A stretch of DNA of 24,000 nucleotides from Candidatus Acidiferrales bacterium (GCA_035933995.1 DASYYI010000387.1:2962-26961), one strand, 5' to 3'. Counted from the first letter of the stretch, positions 3,205-11,162 are shown. The notes: a model not told the origin generated them from the letters alone. A program made the numbers and translations.

Positions 3205-3374
3205 CAATCGTGTCTGCTGCTGCTAAATTCACCCGGCAAAGAATGACACCGCCCATTCGACTTCGCGTTCTTGGCGATTGAACATCAAGCAATGCATTGC
3301 CTTGGCATCTGACAATTGTTGGAGGAAGCTCAGGGTGTTTGGGTAGTACGCGTTGCTCATTTCTCGTTTGCTAT

Positions 3375-3403
3375 GTGCACCGCCGTGGTGTACGGTGGTG
3401 CAC
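3375..3403. promoter_or_regulatory. imperfect inverted repeat upstream of the first RHH gene (candidate operator)
   Basis: The sequence is GTGCACCGCCGT ggtgt ACGGTGGTGCAC, with 11 of 12 arm positions complementary. It lies 59-87 nt upstream of ATG 3462. It contains CACCGCCGTGGTG, which resembles CACCGCTATGGTG upstream of the second RHH gene. TGCTATGTG sits immediately 5' (3370-3378). Confidence 0.35.
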
Positions 3404-3461
3404 AAAAGGAATTAGCGTGCCGAGCAAGAAAACAGGAGGAGCCAAATCGAGGGAAGCAGCT

Positions 3462-3620
3462 ATGCCGCGCGCCTCGGTGAGCTTTCCTCCTGAAGTATAC
3501 AAGACTCTCGAAAATCTTGCGAAGAAGAAAAAAGTCTCGATTGCTTGGATCGTGCGCGAGGCCGTCGAAAAGTACGTCGCTGACCAATGGCCGCTGTTTG
3601 GTAATTTGAAGGGAAACTAA
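3462..3620 (+). CDS. ribbon-helix-helix (CopG/Arc-type) DNA-binding protein, candidate controller of the methyltransferase operon
   Basis: This is the internal ATG of ORF 3297..3620, preceded by GAGGGAAGCAGCT. It encodes 52 aa: MPRASVSFPPEVYKTLENLAKKKKVSIAWIVREAVEKYVADQWPLFGNLKGN. The pattern of a beta-strand (SVSFP) followed by two helices is typical of RHH proteins. The stop TAA is directly followed by the ATG of the next gene. A paralogue is at 7891..8061. Confidence 0.75.
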   Translation: MPRASVSFPPEVYKTLENLAKKKKVSIAWIVREAVEKYVADQWPLFGNLKGN

Positions 3621-4856
3621 ATGAAGTCTGCGATCAAAGCCCGTCTCGAAGAATGTCCAGAGGCAAAGCGCTTCGATGCTGCGCGATTGCATCATGTCGA
3701 CTTCGACTTCACCGACAGCAAGACCGGCTATCTGACACACGGGCTCCACCCGTATCCCGCAAAATTCATTCCGCAGATTCCCGACACCCTCATCCGGGAG
3801 CTGTCGAATGAGGGTGACACGGTAGCCGATGTGTTCTGCGGAAGCGGGACGACGTTGGTCGAGGCGCTTGTACTCAACCGCAATGCCATCGGCTTTGATG
3901 CTAACCCGCTGGCTTGTCTCATCACGAAGGCAAAGACGACACGGTTTGCTCCTGGAGACAAGTCGTCGCTTTTGTCGCTAGCGCGGAGGGCAGGCGAAAC
4001 GGGAGATGCGATAGTGAATGCCGGAAAGACACTCTTCCACCCTTCCGGCGCGTTTACGTCCTCGGCTTGGCGGCCAGATGCGCACGCGCTGACTTTTTGG
4101 TTTGAGCCGCTCGTCATCGAGGAACTTGCGGAAATCCTTTCATGGTGCGAGGCTCTGCCCTCAGAGTCGGCTCGAACCGTCGCACTCGTGGCGTTCTCAT
4201 CGATCATCGTTACGGTCTCTAAGCAGGATTCCGACACAAGGTATGTACGACGCCAAAAGGACGTAGCGCCTGGCGAAACGATGGCACGGTTTGCCCGCGC
4301 GCTTAAGTCCGCACTCACCGCCGTCGATGAGTTCGGCAACCAGGTCCGGTCGGACTTAAGCTGCGAAGTGATCCACGCCAATATTCTTGAGCAGCCGCAA
4401 AGCTCGCCCTTTGACCTGATGGTGTGCTCGCCGCCTTACCCGAATGCGTTCAGCTATCATCTCTACCACATGACCCGCATGGTATGGCTAGGAATGGACC
4501 AGCCGAAATTCAAACGGGAAGAGATTGGTAGTCACCGCAAGTACAGTGCCAAGGGTCTAAATGGGGCAACGGCCCAGACATTCCAGAAAGAAATGCAAAC
4601 CATCTTCTCTTGGCTTCATGTTCATCTGAAGACTGGAGGCTTTACTTGCTTTGTGGTCGGGGATTCCACGATCCGGGGCGAGCTTATCAACAACGCCGAT
4701 CTGATCGCTGCGGCAGGCCTCGTCGAAGGCTTCACTGAGATTGCCCGCCCCACACGGCGTCTTCAAATGACCAAGAAAGCATTCAACCCTGTGATCGGCA
4801 AAATCAAAGACGAGAAGATCATCATCCTTCAGAAGGATAGGGGGGCAGACAGATGA
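3621..4856 (+). CDS. DNA methyltransferase (N4-cytosine or N6-adenine; SPPY catalytic motif), first of a pair
   Basis: 411-aa ORF. It carries HPYPAKFIPQIP, AdoMet motif I VFCGSGTT (aa 71-78) and motif IV CSPPYPNAF (aa 269-277). The order is motif I, then about 190 aa, then motif IV. The 3' end overlaps the next start (ATGA at 4853-4856). Confidence 0.9.
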   Translation: MKSAIKARLEECPEAKRFDAARLHHVDFDFTDSKTGYLTHGLHPYPAKFIPQIPDTLIRELSNEGDTVADVFCGSGTTLVEALVLNRNAIGFDANPLACLITKAKTTRFAPGDKSSLLSLARRAGETGDAIVNAGKTLFHPSGAFTSSAWRPDAHALTFWFEPLVIEELAEILSWCEALPSESARTVALVAFSSIIVTVSKQDSDTRYVRRQKDVAPGETMARFARALKSALTAVDEFGNQVRSDLSCEVIHANILEQPQSSPFDLMVCSPPYPNAFSYHLYHMTRMVWLGMDQPKFKREEIGSHRKYSAKGLNGATAQTFQKEMQTIFSWLHVHLKTGGFTCFVVGDSTIRGELINNADLIAAAGLVEGFTEIARPTRRLQMTKKAFNPVIGKIKDEKIIILQKDRGADR

Positions 4857-6454
4857 AGCAGCAATGCGTATGCCGGATGAAACCCTACATCCAGCCCTTC
4901 GAGCGAACGCTGGCAGTGGCCGAACTCAGCGCCATTGCGCGCACAAAGCCGATTGCGGTTGACAGGACAGAAGAGCCGGTTCTTTTTTCATTGCCGATGG
5001 CGACGAAGGCAGATGCACTGGTGCGGCATTTGGCTTATTGGGAAGTCGTAGAAACAAATAAGCCGTGTTTTACTACCCAGGTATTACGGGAGCGTACCGT
5101 CAATGTGGTCCGCAACGGTGTACCTCCCAAAGACATCCCGCAATTGTTGAAGGACGACATCGTGCTCCCTAATCGTCGCTGCCTGCGCTATGGGACGCAC
5201 GGCATACACGAGTATCGCGGCAAATTCTTCCCTCAGCTTGTCCGATCCTTGATCAATATTGCCGATGTGCCTAAGCGGGGAATCGTAGCAGACCCGATGT
5301 GCGGTAGCGGCACCACCGATGTGGAAGCTGTACTCGGGGAGTATCGCGCCCTGGGGCTTGATATGAACCCATTGTCGGTTCTGATGGCGCACAACAAATG
5401 TGCGCTGCTGTCCGTCGCACCCGAACTGCTGAACTCGAGCTATGAAGCAATCCGCGACAAGCTGATCCGGCCATCCAGCAAACGGAACGGCAAACTCACT
5501 TATTTTGCTTCGCTGCCCGCTCGCGATCAGGAATACCTGTCGGGATGGTTTTCCGAGCAGGTGCTGCAGGATTTGGATGAGGTCGCCCGAACCATAGAGC
5601 AATCAGACAAACGGGTCCGCGATTTCTTCCGGCTCTCCCTCAGCAACATCATTCGCAGCGTCTCGTGGCAAAAAGATGACGATTTGCGTGTCCGTAAGGA
5701 ACTCCGACTCGACGCTGAAATCGATCCTATCCGTGAATTTCTGGAAGAGCTGGGCCGCTCGGTGCGCGTCGTGCTCGCTTTCCTATACCACAACCGGGAA
5801 ACACAGTTTGGACCGTTTGATATTGCCGAAGGCGATGCGCGGGACTTGGCGACGGCGTGGAGCAAGTGGAGAGACAAAATCGACACCATCATCACATCGC
5901 CACCCTATGCCACCGCCTTGCCGTATCTGGACACGGATCGGTTGAGCCTCTCGTATCTTGGCTTGTTGCCGCGCCCCGAGCACCGGCACCTAGATCAGCA
6001 CATGATAGGCAACCGGGAGATTAGTGAAAAGCAGCGGTCAATGTACTGGAGAATCTTTGAGAGCAAGAAGAAGAAATTACCGAAGTCCGTATCAGTGCTA
6101 ATTCAGAAGGTCGATGCACTGAATTCCAAAATCGAGGTTGGCTTCCGCCGCCGTAATCTCCCCGCGTTGCTGACAAAATACTTCCTGGACATGCAGCAGG
6201 TGTTCGAGGGAATGAAAGCGGTACTGCGGCCCGGTTGTCCGGCCTACGTAGTGGTAGGCAACAATCACACAATCGCGGGCGGCGAGAGGGTCGAAATCGA
6301 GACCGCCAGCCTGCTGGTGGAAATTGCGGCGGCGGTCGGAATGAAGTCCGAGCGTCGTATTCCGATGGAGATGCTCGTCTCCCGCGACATCTTCAAGAAG
6401 AACGCGGTCGCTTCGGAAGAAATCCTCTGCTTCAGAACACCTTCTCAGAAGTAG
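4853..6454 (+). CDS. DNA methyltransferase (SPPY catalytic motif), second of a pair
   Basis: 533-aa ORF. It carries YRGKFFPQLV, motif I DPMCGSGTT (aa 147-155) and motif IV ITSPPYATALPY (aa 347-358). It has the same I-to-IV architecture as the upstream gene plus an extra N-terminal domain of about 110 aa. It is translationally coupled to the upstream gene. Its 3' end overlaps the convergent nuclease gene by 10 nt. Confidence 0.9.
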   Translation: MKQQCVCRMKPYIQPFERTLAVAELSAIARTKPIAVDRTEEPVLFSLPMATKADALVRHLAYWEVVETNKPCFTTQVLRERTVNVVRNGVPPKDIPQLLKDDIVLPNRRCLRYGTHGIHEYRGKFFPQLVRSLINIADVPKRGIVADPMCGSGTTDVEAVLGEYRALGLDMNPLSVLMAHNKCALLSVAPELLNSSYEAIRDKLIRPSSKRNGKLTYFASLPARDQEYLSGWFSEQVLQDLDEVARTIEQSDKRVRDFFRLSLSNIIRSVSWQKDDDLRVRKELRLDAEIDPIREFLEELGRSVRVVLAFLYHNRETQFGPFDIAEGDARDLATAWSKWRDKIDTIITSPPYATALPYLDTDRLSLSYLGLLPRPEHRHLDQHMIGNREISEKQRSMYWRIFESKKKKLPKSVSVLIQKVDALNSKIEVGFRRRNLPALLTKYFLDMQQVFEGMKAVLRPGCPAYVVVGNNHTIAGGERVEIETASLLVEIAAAVGMKSERRIPMEMLVSRDIFKKNAVASEEILCFRTPSQK

Positions 6455-7734
6455 CCGAAACGCTTCTGCGAGTGCGGCACCTCCGTATTGCAGAACGGCG
6501 CGAGCTGCTCAAACAGCGGCGAGCCTTGCGGTGCCACCTGGATGTCGTATTCAAAGCCGTTCACCGGATCGACGCGTCGAACGAAGAGAATATCACCAGG
6601 GTACCCAGAACTGCGTAAGACTTCGTTGCGAATCCGAAAATCACCCTTATCCGGGTTGAAGAACATCGCCACGGACTGAACCGTGCCAATGCGCATCGGC
6701 ACGTGCGCACGGTCCATTTTGCCGAGACCATTACGCCTCTTCTTGGGGTTGCGGTTATTCCACGCGATATCGGCGGTGAATTGATTCGGGAAGGTCCAGA
6801 AGTCGGGATTTTGGTCGATAGCTGCCAGCGGTATGAAAACTTCCGGTGATCTGCGGGATGTCCCTCGCGTTGTCTGACCCACACCTACGTCCGTGTTTTG
6901 CAAGGTCATCACGAAGCAACTGACGCCGCCAACTTGTGCTGGCACGATGCCAGGTGGCGGGAGCACGGTGACAGCGGGCAATTCTGCGGCTTCCGCCTCG
7001 CCTTCCGCCTCGATTGGCTCCACTTCCGCTCTGGCGATAGCCGGTGGCCGAGGAACGCCGACCGTGATGAAGAGCGGGGGAGGGGGAACGGGTTGCTCAC
7101 CGGCATTTGCTGCACCCCCTGCTGGAGGCACTGTCGGTTGCGGTGCAGGAGTCCGCGCCTGCTGTGCGGCTGCCAATTCGGCTTCACTGCGCACAAGTCC
7201 AGACGCGACGAGCCGGTCTATGAATTCTGCCGTGAGCACATAGCAAACACCTTGCTGCGGCTGGGCCCATTGATCCAGCGTCGCTTCGATGACTTGCAGA
7301 AACGCTGCATCCTCCGGCACGGCTAGGTCCAGCGAAACGGCAAGGGACGCTTCGTAGTTGGTAAACAATCCCCCGCCTGTCAGATTGCCGGACCCGACAA
7401 GGACATCGGCATGCTCCGCCGACTTGAAGACATAGACCTTCGGGTGAAACGTGTAGGGGCCGTTATTCCGGTAGATGAGAATCTGCCCAGGCCGCGTTAC
7501 ATCCAGGAGATCGTTCAATCCCTCTCTGGAGGTGCCGTACAAATCGACGCCCACGGAAATCAGGACATCCGACCTGGCGCTGAAGTCTCGAAGCAGCTCA
7601 CGAATGTACTGTGTGCCGGAGCGCTTCACGAATGCGATAGCAGCTCGGAAAGTCGCCCATTGCGGATCGGCGAGGTGGTTGCGAAGAAATTCTCCCAACC
7701 GCACGTCTCCGAATGGCTGCGTAATGAATTGCAT
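6445..7734 (-). CDS. PLD-superfamily nuclease, BfiI/NgoFVII-like restriction endonuclease candidate (N-terminal HKD nuclease, Pro/Ala/Glu linker, C-terminal putative DNA-recognition domain)
   Basis: 429-aa ORF. It has a single HKD-type motif, TFHPKVYVFKSAEHADVLVGSGNLTGGGL (H97, K99, GSGN 114-117). A low-complexity linker spans about aa 186-266 (ARTPAPQPTVPPAGG..PVPPPP..EAEGEAEAAELP). The C-terminal domain begins CFVMTLQNTDVGVG...SPEVFIPLAAI, which resembles the first strands of B3/EcoRII-N-type pseudobarrels. The gene is convergent with two methyltransferase genes. Confidence 0.85.
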   Translation of the reverse strand: MQFITQPFGDVRLGEFLRNHLADPQWATFRAAIAFVKRSGTQYIRELLRDFSARSDVLISVGVDLYGTSREGLNDLLDVTRPGQILIYRNNGPYTFHPKVYVFKSAEHADVLVGSGNLTGGGLFTNYEASLAVSLDLAVPEDAAFLQVIEATLDQWAQPQQGVCYVLTAEFIDRLVASGLVRSEAELAAAQQARTPAPQPTVPPAGGAANAGEQPVPPPPLFITVGVPRPPAIARAEVEPIEAEGEAEAAELPAVTVLPPPGIVPAQVGGVSCFVMTLQNTDVGVGQTTRGTSRRSPEVFIPLAAIDQNPDFWTFPNQFTADIAWNNRNPKKRRNGLGKMDRAHVPMRIGTVQSVAMFFNPDKGDFRIRNEVLRSSGYPGDILFVRRVDPVNGFEYDIQVAPQGSPLFEQLAPFCNTEVPHSQKRFGYF

Positions 7735-7805
7735 GACAGGAGAGAATCATACTAGCAAGATTGGTCAACCTGCACGCAGGCTATACGGAAGGTTGCCTTC
7801 CATGC

Positions 7806-7839
7806 AATTCACCGCTATGGTGAATTGTGGTGCTATACT
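7806..7839 (+). promoter_or_regulatory. perfect inverted repeat plus an extended -10-like element in the nuclease/RHH divergent region
   Basis: AATTCACC gctat GGTGAATT (7806-7826) has perfect 8-bp arms. It is followed by TGcTATACT (7831-7839), which is TG-n-TATACT and therefore extended -10-like. It sits between the nuclease start (7734, minus strand) and the RHH2 start (7858/7891, plus strand). Confidence 0.35.
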
Positions 7840-7890
7840 CCAGCAAGCGAGCAGGCCGTGACCAGAGGCGCTAAGCGAAAAGAAAAATTC

Positions 7891-8061
7891 GTGTCGACCG
7901 AGAGTCCGTCCATTCGCGCGACCATCAGCTTTCCGCCTGATCTTTACCAATCTCTCGAAGGGATAGCACAGCAGAAAAAGGTTTCGCTTGCCTGGGTCGT
8001 TCGCGAGGCTGCGGAACAGTACATCGCGGACAAATGGCCGCTCTTCAAAGGTAAGGTGTGA
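7891..8061 (+). CDS. ribbon-helix-helix (CopG/Arc-type) DNA-binding protein, paralogue of 3462..3620, first gene of the Argonaute operon
   Basis: This is part of ORF 7825..8061 and encodes ..SIRATISFPPDLYQSLEGIAQQKKVSLAWVVREAAEQYIADKWPLFKGKV. My hand alignment to the first RHH gives 27 identical of 43 aligned positions, and most other positions are conservative. The start is ambiguous: in-frame GTG at 7891 or 7858, or ATG at 7825. I prefer a GTG because 7825 lies inside the inverted repeat and upstream of the -10-like box. Confidence 0.7.
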   Translation: MSTESPSIRATISFPPDLYQSLEGIAQQKKVSLAWVVREAAEQYIADKWPLFKGKV

Positions 8062-8105
8062 CCATGCCTTTGGCGGCGCAGGAGACTTATTTTTAGAACG
8101 TTTCA

Positions 8106-10070
8106 ATGGCCAATCAACAGACAACGCTTGGCGCTGGAAAAGACGATTACCACATCCACCTCAACTTCTTGCCGGTTGAGACGGGTGGTGCGCATTTTGT
8201 TATTTACCGTTGCAAATGCGCGTCTCCGCAGGAGCAGCGCCCGACCCCGCTGGCAAGCGCTCACAAGCTTCCGGCAACCTCCGCGGACGAAAAAGACTGG
8301 CAGTCCTACTGGGTGATTCCCGAAGCGGCGGAGGGTTTTGAAGCGTTTGATTTCCAACCGGAATGGAACGCCGACATAACGCGAAGGATCATGTTCGGAT
8401 GCCTGAGACAGTCCGTGGTGTCCCGGTTGAAAACCACGGAGTATCGCTTCCCGGAGAACAGCTTCATTGAGGAAGTCTCGTTCGTTATGCAGACGCATCA
8501 AGAGGGGGAGGAGGAACTTGTAGTGCAGCCCTACTCCCTCAAAGCAACCCGCCAGACGGGCTTCCTCGTCGATTTTCACTTCAGGCTCGGCAAGAACGTT
8601 CCATTCAGCCGGAAAATCCAGCAACTCAGCCTGAGCCTCGACAAGAACTTCCGGCGAAATGTCGATTATTACGTTGATCGATCCTCGAAGATTCGACGCT
8701 TCCTCGAAAGGAGATGGCCGGTCTTCGAGGGAATGACGCTGCCCGGCGGTTCCGCGCCGCTGCGGACATCCAAGGAATTTGTGGCGCTGCCGGCGGAGCG
8801 GCTTCGCCCGAAAGTCTATGTATTCTCCGGCGACAAGGAATCCAAGAGCCAGTTCACGGGCCTGCGCGACTTTGGGCCTCTCCAGCCGCTCGACAAACCT
8901 CCCCGGTTGCTTTTCGTATTTCGGGAACAGGACAGGCAAGCGGCGCGACGCCTCGCTCTTTCCCTAAAGGGATTGAAACAGCGCGGCCAGTTTAATTTTC
9001 CGGGCTTCAAGGATCTGTTTAAGACCGCTTTGGACATCGACGCGGACCCGGTAGTTCTTCCCGATCTCAGCGACAAATCGATGGAATCCGCGCTGAAGCG
9101 CGCGGAGACCGTCCGAAAGGATTCGCCCCGAGTTCTGCCCGTCATTGTTCTGCCGAACAACGAGGACAATGGCTACCTTGCTCAGAAGGCGCATTTTTCG
9201 CACGCGGGCATGCCCACACAGGTCTGCACGCTGCGAATTCTGGAGGACGAGGAATCGTTGAAATGGGCAATCGGAAACCTCGCGCTACAGATATTCTGCA
9301 AGGCGGGCGGAAAACCCTGGAAAGTTCGTCCCACGGCCGAGCATTCCCTCATCATCGGCATCAGCCAGTCCCACAAGTGCCGGGTGATCGACAAGCAAGT
9401 GCATGTCGATAAATATTTTGCGTTCTCCGTCCTGACCGACAGCAGCGGCTTGTTCCAGCAGATTCAGGTGCTGGGGGATTCCGAGGATCACTCCACCTAC
9501 ATCAGCGCGCTTCGCGCCAATTTGAAAAAAGTCCTGGAGGAAAACGCGGGCGCGTTCAATCGCGTCGTCATCCATACCTCCTTCAAGCTCAGGCACGAGG
9601 AGATCAAAGCCATACAGCAAACCGCCCACGATGTCGCCACCGCCACGGATCGCGCCAAATGCAGGTTCTCCGTCATCAAGGTGAACCATAAGAGCCGGTT
9701 CTTCGGCATCAACCGCTCCGTCAACAGCCTCGTGCCCTTCGAGGCGACGAAGGTTCGGCTCAGTTCCAGCGAACACCTTCTGTGGTTTGAAGGCATCTAC
9801 CCGGATAAGCCGAACGTGACCAAGGCTTTTCCCGGCCCCACGCATCTCCAATTTCTTCGCGTGAACGACGATGCGGCCGAGCCCGCCGAGCAGCGCGAGC
9901 TATTGCAGGATTTGGTGAATCTTTCCGGGGCCAATTGGCGGGGATTCAACGCCAAGAGCGCTCCCGTATCCGTTTTCTATTGTCATCTGGTCGCCGATCT
10001 TGTTCATGATTTCCATGAGCGAGGACTTCCGATGCCAGCCGTGCAAGACATTCGGCCTTGGTTCCTGTGA
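8106..10070 (+). CDS. prokaryotic Argonaute (pAgo), catalytically inactive PIWI, MID with YKQK-type 5'-end pocket, short N-terminal region with no obvious PAZ
   Basis: 654-aa ORF. MID motifs: NGYLAQKAHFSHAGMPTQVCTL (Y357, K361, Q372) and LALQIFCKAGGKPWKV (K399). PIWI motifs: SLIIGISQSH where slicers have GxDV (S420), and RVVIHTSFKL where slicers have HRDG (S492). The C-terminal APVSVFYCHLVADLV is typical of a PIWI end. Only about 265 aa precede the MID Rossmann start (PRLLFVFREQD). The upstream frame is closed by TAG at 8094, so ATG 8106 is the start. Confidence 0.9.
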   Translation: MANQQTTLGAGKDDYHIHLNFLPVETGGAHFVIYRCKCASPQEQRPTPLASAHKLPATSADEKDWQSYWVIPEAAEGFEAFDFQPEWNADITRRIMFGCLRQSVVSRLKTTEYRFPENSFIEEVSFVMQTHQEGEEELVVQPYSLKATRQTGFLVDFHFRLGKNVPFSRKIQQLSLSLDKNFRRNVDYYVDRSSKIRRFLERRWPVFEGMTLPGGSAPLRTSKEFVALPAERLRPKVYVFSGDKESKSQFTGLRDFGPLQPLDKPPRLLFVFREQDRQAARRLALSLKGLKQRGQFNFPGFKDLFKTALDIDADPVVLPDLSDKSMESALKRAETVRKDSPRVLPVIVLPNNEDNGYLAQKAHFSHAGMPTQVCTLRILEDEESLKWAIGNLALQIFCKAGGKPWKVRPTAEHSLIIGISQSHKCRVIDKQVHVDKYFAFSVLTDSSGLFQQIQVLGDSEDHSTYISALRANLKKVLEENAGAFNRVVIHTSFKLRHEEIKAIQQTAHDVATATDRAKCRFSVIKVNHKSRFFGINRSVNSLVPFEATKVRLSSSEHLLWFEGIYPDKPNVTKAFPGPTHLQFLRVNDDAAEPAEQRELLQDLVNLSGANWRGFNAKSAPVSVFYCHLVADLVHDFHERGLPMPAVQDIRPWFL

Positions 10071-10076
10071 GCTACT

Positions 10077-11162
10077 ATGACGAGCCGCTCTAAAGACATC
10101 ATCTTTCTACTTGGCGCGGGGGCAAGCGCCGAGGCGGGCATCCCCGTTTCCGGCGAGATGATCAATCTGGTGGAAAAGTCGCTTAAGGCGGGCACGGAGC
10201 AGGGCCTGTACCATCACGTCAAAAGCGCCATTCATTTTTCTGCGGGACTCAAAGGCCGCTTTGGCAACGCGGTTCCGTTCAACATCGAGACGCTGGTAAA
10301 CACTTTGTATGAGCTGGAGCGAAACGAAGAACATCCCTTGTATCCGTTCATTGCGGCGTGGAGTTCCCGGTTTGTCGCTCTCGCGGGGCCGGACTTCGGC
10401 GAAGTGCGTCGCTTCCGGCAGCGCATCCTCGCGGACTTAAAGAAATGGATGTGTCCCGAGGACTCGGCCAAAGCCGATTACTACCGGGGCCTGATCGCGC
10501 TCCAGCGCGACCTCAACTATCCTTTGCACGTTTTCTCTTTGAATTACGATCTCTGCGTTGAAGGTCTGAATACTTCGGAGTTTCGCGTCGAAACAGGCTT
10601 CGCCAACTTTGGCCCCAGCCACTCCTGGGACTGGGAGCGTTTCGTGGACATGGAAACCAGCAACAATATCGCTCCGCAGCTTGTCCTCTATAAGCTGCAC
10701 GGGTCCATCAACTGGAAGCGAAGCCCCGAAACCAAAGAGCTATTCTGCGTGCAGCAAATCGAGAGCGTCGATGCGGAAAAAATGGAAGTCATCTTCGGAC
10801 GCGAGTTCAAGCTGGAAGCCGCAGACCCGTATCTGTTCTTCGCGTACAAATTCCGGGATCTGTCACTGGTGACGAAGCTCATCGTCACCTTGGGATACGG
10901 GTTCGGCGACGTGCACATCAATAAGATGCTGACGCAAAGTCTACGCACCGATTCAGAGCGCCGCCTCCTCGCAATTCAGGGCTGCGAGGAAAAAGATTGC
11001 GTCAAGAAAGCTAATGAAATCGAGGGACTTCTGGAGCTCGGTGATGACCGGACGTACCAAGTGATTGTTCAACCAGGCTCGGCAAAACAATTCCTGGAAA
11101 CTCCGAAACTGAACGAGCAGCTTGTAAAGTTAATTCCGCCGAGCAAAGACGTTCCGTTCTGA
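10077..11162 (+). CDS. SIR2-like (SIR2_2 type) protein, putative NAD+-consuming effector
   Basis: 361-aa ORF starting 6 nt after the pAgo stop. Motifs: IIFLLGAGASAEAGIP (Rossmann NAD motif, aa 8-23), FSLNYD (N156, D158), LYKLHGSINW (H208) and TLGYGFGD. It is too short to include an APAZ-type adaptor as well. Confidence 0.85.
   Translation: MTSRSKDIIFLLGAGASAEAGIPVSGEMINLVEKSLKAGTEQGLYHHVKSAIHFSAGLKGRFGNAVPFNIETLVNTLYELERNEEHPLYPFIAAWSSRFVALAGPDFGEVRRFRQRILADLKKWMCPEDSAKADYYRGLIALQRDLNYPLHVFSLNYDLCVEGLNTSEFRVETGFANFGPSHSWDWERFVDMETSNNIAPQLVLYKLHGSINWKRSPETKELFCVQQIESVDAEKMEVIFGREFKLEAADPYLFFAYKFRDLSLVTKLIVTLGYGFGDVHINKMLTQSLRTDSERRLLAIQGCEEKDCVKKANEIEGLLELGDDRTYQVIVQPGSAKQFLETPKLNEQLVKLIPPSKDVPF

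Follow-up and report, generated by a model that had tools for sequence, protein, structure and literature searches.

Ribbon–helix–helix cassettes with a common tripartite operator-like site head two defense operons of an Acidiferrales genome and may repress them

A 24,000-nucleotide stretch of DNA from a Candidatus Acidiferrales bacterium (GCA_035933995.1, DASYYI010000387.1:2962-26961)—hereafter the window, with positions counted from its first letter—encodes two small ribbon–helix–helix (RHH) proteins, RHH1 and RHH2. As an earlier note on this DNA had proposed, each stands at the head of its own defense operon: RHH1 before the two methyltransferases, M1 and M2, of a restriction–modification (R-M) system and RHH2 before an Argonaute–SIR2 system. 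Both genes are preceded by the same tripartite site. Judged from sequence, it is probable that such cassettes of about 300 bp—each made up of a promoter, a tripartite operator, and an RHH gene—head defense operons and repress the operon they head.

The shared site reads CACC-N5-GGTG-N6-GGTG and spans 23 bp, at 3378-3400 before RHH1 and at 7810-7832 before RHH2. It comprises three 4-bp half-sites: A (CACC, 3378-3381 and 7810-7813), B (GGTG, 3387-3390 and 7819-7822), and C (GGTG, 3397-3400 and 7829-7832), whose centers lie 9 and 10 bp apart, which puts all three on the same helix face. The inverted repeat that the earlier note had described before each gene is present in both cases—3374-3386 / 3392-3404 for RHH1, with 13-nt arms, one mismatch, and a 5-nt gap, and 7805-7813 / 7819-7827 for RHH2, with perfect 9-nt arms and a 5-nt gap—and the cores CACCGCCGTGGTG and CACCGCTATGGTG agree at 11 of 13 positions, as had been counted. 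What has to be given up is the view of the palindromes as two different elements, since the RHH1 repeat is the pairing of A with C and the RHH2 repeat that of A with B within a single A–B–C site. The same holds for TGCTAT as a shared element: in RHH1, it is part of a −35-like TTGCTA upstream of the site, and in RHH2, it is part of TGcTATACT, downstream; it is not conserved in homologues, and its common occurrence looks coincidental.

The site is rare as well as specific in its position. Within the window, CACC-N5-GGTG occurs at just these two places, with 0.30 occurrences expected and 5 of 100 shuffles reaching two; in the 4.25-Mb assembly, the full tripartite pattern is again confined to these two sites, and a reversed-pattern control gives 0. 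A search of the window for extra operator copies with up to 2 mismatches returned one weak match inside M2, not above chance.

Conservation of the motif upstream of homologous RHH genes, which the earlier note had named as a check, is borne out. The related loci comprise 80 from species-representative genomes (338 matched) and 32 from metagenomes, with 114 RHH copies that have enough upstream DNA. CACC-N5-GGTG is present before 105 of these 114 copies and the tripartite form before 98, where it lies 75-115 nt ahead of the codons for the conserved RATISFP; elsewhere in these loci, 922 kb of background DNA contain no tripartite site. In the aligned upstream regions, the half-sites are invariant and the flanking sequence is variable. 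Half-sites that never covary point to recognition of the DNA by a protein and not to an RNA stem, a reading of CACC...GGTG that was rejected on this ground. The site is also kept in five other phyla (Dormiibacterota, Gemmataceae, Verrucomicrobiia, Nitrospirota, and a deltaproteobacterial metagenome-assembled genome) and stays constant while the type of the downstream methyltransferase varies between C5, N6, N4, and type IIG. Hence, it tracks the RHH gene and not the promoter type of the host.

The two proteins are paralogues, as hand alignment with 27 of 43 identities had suggested: BLASTP of RHH1 (3462-3620) against RHH2 (7891-8061) gives 28/44 identical residues (64%) and 42/44 positives at E 8e-25. 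Their β-strand residues are nearly alike (RASVSF vs RATISF), and they are the only copies of the family in the 4.25-Mb assembly. The gene starts at 3462 and 7891 have to be revised, as both genes probably begin 11-15 codons earlier. GTG 3417 and GTG 7858 are the likely true starts, with 67 amino acids (aa) for each protein (RHH1, 3417..3620, plus strand, with ATG 3462 as the alternative; RHH2, 7858..8061, plus strand, database gene call P0008 of 67 aa), since homologues are mostly called at 67 aa and carry an in-frame basic N-terminal tail. This tail, MTRGAKRKEK, is kept in the RHH2 subgroup; homologues of the RHH1 clade keep such a tail as well, several of them without an internal Met, and the copies of loci L083 and L084 align to RHH1 across residues 1-67. 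In RHH1, the basic tail is disordered and followed by the ribbon–helix–helix.

RHH1 matches Pfam RHH_1 at 31.9 bits (cut-off 20.5), in addition to RHH_3 and RHH_5, and RHH2 matches RHH_1 at 20.4 bits, marginally below the cut-off of 20.5. The family profile reaches CopG-family PDB chains at E about 0.01. In the AlphaFold2 (AF2) model of RHH2, residues 1-19 are disordered, 20-26 extended, and 27-40 and 44-63 helical, with pLDDT values of 87-96 in the core. The top-ranked Foldseek matches of this model are almost all RHH proteins (CopA_SO, CopG, ORF56, Arc), and CopG superposes at a root-mean-square deviation of 1.8-2.0 Å, with CopG–DNA complexes at about 1.9 Å over 40 residues. Sequence profile and predicted β–α–α fold together place RHH1 and RHH2 in the Arc/MetJ (CopG-like) ribbon–helix–helix superfamily.

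RHH proteins are common antitoxins, and weak NCBIfam matches to a RelB-like antitoxin and to ORF56 might suggest that the RHH protein has such another role and that the motif is a mere promoter element. We regard this as very improbable. Across phyla, the motif goes with the RHH gene; no toxin gene lies downstream in any examined locus, and the next gene is of R-M type in at least 81 of 108. The protein, moreover, ends 4-7 residues past helix 2, which leaves no room for a toxin-binding tail. A type II antitoxin was rejected on these grounds: the loci carry a methyltransferase, Vsr, or an Argonaute where a toxin partner would stand, and the protein bears no C-terminal extension.

How the site might work depends on its position relative to the promoter. 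Most loci have TAnnGT as the hexamer between B and C (position 2 is A in 91/94, position 6 T in 85/94, and position 1 T in 54/94), and a TTG is found 16-17 nt upstream of it in 30/94. From the conservation of TTG and TAnnGT, we infer a candidate −35/−10 pair for RHH1: TTGCTA (3368-3373), 17 nt, and TACGGT (3391-3396). Sites A and B then lie within the −35/−10 spacer, the −10-like TACGGT between B and C, and C before the start. The whole control region (3368..3404, plus strand) fits the consensus of the RHH1 clade, tGCACCGcgatGGTGTAtgGTGGTGCa. For RHH2, the operator region (7805..7839, plus strand) comprises sites A, B, and C and an extended −10-like TGcTATACT (7831-7839); its subgroup conserves this element and also TTGnnT-17-TATGGT, which offers TTGCCT (7793-7798), 17 nt, and TATGGT (7816-7821) as an alternative promoter.

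We propose that one RHH dimer would bind each half-site via its β-ribbon, as in CopG, Arc, and omega. A and B would fill the −35/−10 spacer and C the stretch between the −10 element and the transcription start. As the predicted sites are interleaved with the core promoter, their occupancy would block RNA polymerase, and the operon would repress itself. In a new host devoid of RHH, this would allow for a burst of expression—methyltransferase first—before the operon falls to a low level for maintenance. Applied to Argonaute–SIR2, the same loop would keep the dose of this potentially suicidal system low and steady.

Several observations weigh against this self-repression. In the RHH2 subgroup, a degenerate AATTGT takes the place of the −10-like element between B and C, and the likely −10 is TGcTATACT just downstream; sites A and B would then lie around the −35 position, from which activation is possible. 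Neither promoter was called by a consensus scan—which uses the E. coli consensus, with acidobacterial promoters being poorly known—so the promoter assignments are weak. A few homologues are without the exact motif (L013, L058, and the variants L083/L084), and the related loci are non-independent samples.

The degenerate hexamer could suit an RHH protein that is an activator or a dual activator–repressor like classical C proteins of R-M systems, needed to turn the operon on: TGcTATACT, the best −10 of the RHH2 subgroup, is without a good −35, a position occupied by A and B, and three sites with unequal flanks could give graded occupancy. Such a role seems rather unlikely to us. Small RHH proteins of the CopG/Arc/omega type are generally repressors. 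Omega and PaaR, specifically, are strictly repressive (PMC3874152). The −10-like hexamer between B and C in most family members favors occlusion, and the RHH gene is the first of its operon, so that an obligate activator would depend on its own prior synthesis. Pure repression is likelier for the RHH proteins than the dual mode of C proteins.

In a tree of 103 RHH sequences—built on a short alignment, so that many forks stay open—RHH1 falls into a starred clade of about 27 and RHH2 into the main clade of 76. The clades differ in the flanks of their operators, with consensus tGCACCG...GGTGTA..GTGGTGCa (n=20) for the RHH1 clade and TTCACCG...TGGTGaAaTGTGGTGaa (n=74) for the main clade. Site A is immediately preceded by G in 85% of RHH1-clade members and by T in 97% of those of the main clade, and site C is immediately followed by C in 95% of the former and by A in 66% of the latter. 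These different specificity clades (GCACC/GGTGC vs TCACC/GGTGA) suggest that each RHH would act mainly on its own operator, and the identical GGTG cores would make some cross-binding possible.

The earlier note had gone further and had seen a duplicated controller pair that cross-talks. Paralogy stands, but a local duplication does not, in light of the separate clades, the separate cassettes, and the recurrence of each part on its own. The unit of RHH1, M1, M2, and the convergent restriction nuclease R recurs on a metagenome contig (L084) with 88% (M1), 85% (M2), and 43% (R) identity. Compared with window positions 3417-7734, the nuclease of L084 has been swapped or evolves much faster than the methyltransferases. 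Around RHH2, the DNA resembles that of loci L012 and L003 from TTGCCT (7793) on, up to ~8096 (TTATTTT) for L012 and until soon after ATG 8064 for L003; the three-way alignment thereby delimits the RHH2 cassette—promoter, operator, RHH gene, and short tail—to 7793..8096 on the plus strand. RHH1 and RHH2 thus came in as separate cassettes.

That each RHH protein also binds the operator of the other, or that the two heterodimerise, and that methylation, restriction, and Argonaute–SIR2 expression are thereby coupled and timed after entry into a host, is a tentative reading that we hold to be less probable than separate action. It can draw on the GGTG cores and spacing, which are identical in both operators, on the near-identical β-strands, on site C of RHH2, which bears the RHH1-type flank GGTGC, and on two-cassette islands elsewhere, such as G446 with its DruE and DruM operons or a metagenome-assembled genome that contains L028 and L032 with near-identical operators. 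Set against this are the different clades with their clade-specific flanks, which look like specificity divergence and argue for at least partial insulation and not for designed cross-talk, and the occurrence of the two modules apart from each other in L084, L012, L014, and L020. The Druantia-like island of G446 (L127, G446:C66:20500-38500) carries one operator at 1364, followed by RHH, a weak DruF-like protein of 807 aa, and DruE (PADLOC, E 0), and another at 10440, followed by RHH, DruM (a C5 methylase), and PDC-S36/NOV_C. Its RHH copies are diverged, yet the two operators share the TTCACC...GGTGAA type.

The wider family consists of CopG-like RHH proteins of about 55-67 aa, is centered on Acidobacteriota, and numbers 494 representatives at 50% identity (E up to 1e-10). 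It is present in 33/401 sampled genomes of the class and in 0/6 genomes of the same genus. Its cargo is dominated by R-M. In the 108 related loci, the gene that comes next after the RHH gene is mostly a DNA methyltransferase or Vsr (at least 81); by Pfam, the first gene is a C5 DNA methylase in 52 loci, Vsr in 14, N6_Mtase in 10, Eco57I in 8, AAA_23 in 5, N6_N4_Mtase in 4, HSDR_N_2 in 2, and Mrr and D12 in 1 each. Restriction nucleases of many kinds follow further on (DUF4928, Eco29kI, NotI-like, PstI-like, type IIG). An Argonaute (pAgo) comes directly after the RHH gene in five only—the window, L012 with the near-identical L009, L010, and L016—and lies deeper in an RHH-led R-M operon in L014, L020, L040, and L005. 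With cargo that is mostly methyltransferase or Vsr and rarely Argonaute, this is a family of R-M operon leaders, of which RHH2 was reused before a known BPAS system. The analogy to R-M C proteins drawn in the earlier note, with an RHH fold in their place, fits such a family.

For RHH1, the cargo begins with M1, an N4/N6-type methyltransferase (3621..4856, plus strand; Pfam N6_N4_Mtase 2.4e-18, PADLOC MTase_II 2.6e-64), whose ATG abuts the RHH1 stop codon (TAAATG). M2 (4853..6454, plus strand; PADLOC MTase_II 9e-72) overlaps M1 by 4 nt. Convergent with it and with its 5' end toward the RHH2 cassette lies a PLD-family, BfiI-like restriction nuclease (6445..7734, minus strand; PADLOC REase_II 8e-7), whose Pfam matches to RE_NgoFVII, PLDc_2, and BfiI_DBD are all weak and under the curated cut-offs. 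In a BfiI-like type IIS R-M system as the RHH1 cargo, both N4/N6 methyltransferases are clear and the nuclease-domain matches sub-threshold. RHH is no obligate part of this R-M type, a candidate role that was rejected with G415, which has homologous M1, M2, and R without any RHH or operator.

RHH2 might also control the nuclease, whose gene runs in the opposite direction from the same 123-bp region, and would in that case be the actual C-like controller of R. Site A and the nuclease ATG (7734) are 76 nt apart, and a 16-nt inverted repeat (7725-7740 / 7796-7811) joins the nuclease start-codon region and the operator edge. The predicted fold of a nuclease-sense RNA (7815→7715), at −33.6 kcal/mol (z −2.7), buries the AUG, which is relevant only if the transcript begins beyond 7812. 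The comparison with other loci speaks against such a role, which we consider unlikely. Similarity of the RHH2 cassette begins only at 7793, so that 7735-7792 belongs to the R-M module, whose convergent R is also found in L084. At other loci, the cassette has unrelated divergent neighbors (recombinases, AbiE, RNase PH), and a recurrent layout with a nuclease diverging from the cassette was not found among the related loci, which gives no comparative support for control of the nuclease by RHH2. The RHH-free module of G415 points the same way. The arms of the repeat are paired at 14/16 positions around a perfect 11-nt core (TGAATTGCATG / CATGCAATTCA); the right arm (7796-7811) abuts site A and bears window-specific substitutions relative to L012 and L003.

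The cargo of RHH2 consists of a long-B type pAgo (8106..10070, plus strand; PADLOC pAgo_II 4.3e-214, Pfam Piwi 8.4e-15) as its first gene and a bAgaS-like SIR2 effector (10077..11162, plus strand; PADLOC Aga_SIR2 5.2e-123, Pfam SIR2_2). The genes lie 6 nt apart with pAgo upstream, the SIR2 effector is stand-alone, and both PADLOC models are covered almost end to end. This is the arrangement of BPAS (GbAgo/GbbAgaS), in which a long-B pAgo likewise lies upstream of a SIR2 effector (Song et al. 2023, PMC10620215). In a term search of that paper, neighboring putative helix–turn–helix regulators came up only in a figure legend, and "ribbon" or "CopG" gave no match. Terminator scan and RNA folding of the interval between RHH2 and pAgo revealed neither a plus-strand terminator nor a stable hairpin. 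An RNA attenuator or terminator in this interval was rejected, its fold being no better than that of shuffles (z +0.85).

Several observations suggest that the RHH cassette is reused for unrelated cargo. In the tree, RHH2 pairs as sister with the RHH of L012, a locus with pAgo and a nuclease effector (support 98/85), and lies amid RHHs linked to methyltransferases; at least two origins of the pAgo label are required, and the cargo type changes 29 times. The nearest homologues of the pAgo–SIR2 pair, in L014 (88%/90%) and L020 (84%/80%), both adjoin RHH-led R-M operons, behind which they sit without an RHH of their own. A further homologue in G392 (76%) has neither RHH nor operator within 1.5 kb upstream. 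RHH was thereby rejected as an obligate pAgo–SIR2 partner, and the RHH leader is an add-on and not part of the BPAS system. Between RHH2 and pAgo, a mini-frame of 33 nt (8064..8096, plus strand; MPLAAQETYF*) became apparent from the alignment with sister loci—L003, L007, L015, L008, and L035, which have methyltransferase starts, and the pAgo-linked L012 and L009. It resembles MPxFYEFFAGGG, the N-terminus of the C5 methyltransferase that comes after RHH in sister loci, a likeness that is clearer in L009 (MAPCVEFFSKYGRSAI*, 6210-6270), with the L012 counterpart at 387-460. The mini-frame is possibly the decayed 5' end of a C5-methyltransferase gene—a cargo-replacement scar, and suggestive only—whose likeness to a methyltransferase start suggests that pAgo replaced R-M cargo behind an existing cassette. 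Linkage of R-M and BPAS recurs in the window, L014, and L020, with R-M types that differ, and might, speculatively, be functional, for example if restriction fragments feed guide acquisition.

Regulation of R-M systems by helix–turn–helix C proteins is textbook knowledge. C proteins are autoregulatory, bind a multi-site operator over their own promoter, and presumably control establishment and steady-state levels (PMC2175313, PMC2504287, PMC6237814, PMC3874152). Like C.PvuII, C.AhdI, C.Esp1396I, and C.Kpn2I, the RHH proteins are small DNA-binding proteins encoded at the head of a transcription unit, for which autoregulation is predicted here; a conserved multi-site operator-like element overlaps −10/−35-like elements, and specificity groups are expected. 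C proteins, however, are Xre-type helix–turn–helix proteins that use C-boxes, act as dual activator–repressors, and usually precede the nuclease gene that they activate. In contrast, the present system shows an RHH fold, CACC-N5-GGTG-N6-GGTG, and a gene before a methyltransferase or pAgo; RHH1 itself precedes two methyltransferases, with the nuclease convergent.

In structure, CopG of pMV158, ORF56, and P22 Arc/Mnt are closest to the model and share an RHH core of about 45-55 aa. All are autorepressors and occupy several neighboring subsites along one DNA face, over the promoter. Sequence similarity to them is remote (E about 0.01), the operator differs, and theirs lead replication or antirepressor genes and not defense. 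Omega of the epsilon–zeta system, PaaR, Reg576, and RHH-type Aca resemble the present case in that the RHH gene is first in its operon on mobile elements. There, the repressor leads early-needed or dangerous products and binds short sites in direct and inverted orientation (PMC3874152, PMC6294495, PMC13551039). Families and operators differ from ours, and the cargo is toxin–antitoxin, plasmid establishment, or anti-CRISPR genes. By analogy, R-M C proteins and operon-leader RHH repressors are functionally the closest relatives, and CopG is structurally the closest.

No RHH-type controller of an R-M or pAgo system was found described in the searched literature, which missed most subscription journals; an RHH equivalent of the helix–turn–helix C proteins was thus not met there, yet the family is large, with its 494 representatives, and has a sharp operator. 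We give roughly even odds to the broader proposal that RHH cassettes form a second, undescribed class of controllers for R-M and other defense operons. In it, cassettes of several specificity groups (GCACC, TCACC, and AGTG in Xanthomonas plasmids) would capture R-M, Druantia-like, or long-B Argonaute cargo and express it by burst and subsequent repression, and a resident of the same group could silence an incomer, leading to exclusion or coordination between islands. The predicted specificity groups could govern the compatibility between defense islands. RHH2 would be the first candidate transcription regulator dedicated to a long-B Argonaute system and exemplifies one regulatory cassette reused for unrelated defense cargo. 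With a site of only 23 bp, the mechanism is directly testable, and the cassette would offer compact, self-limiting expression.

The family reaches conjugative plasmids of Xanthomonas (28 records), in which a 61%-identical RHH precedes an Eco57I-type methylase and a PstI-type nuclease; a phage collection contained no RHH-family homologue. On the Xanthomonas phaseoli plasmid NZ_CP029285.1 (L131, 3480-3730), the exact CACC/GGTG site is absent, and an AGTG-N6-AGTG direct repeat is seen by eye just upstream of RHH, possibly marking another specificity group. An antisense frame of 119 aa over RHH2 (7765-8124, minus strand) recurs in nine loci (cluster c4) only through conservation of the RHH sequence and is a shadow frame rather than a gene. 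In two loci, genes of large serine recombinases diverge directly upstream of the RHH cassette (L026, 4339-5748; L028, 968-2560), which fits the mobility of RHH-led R-M units.

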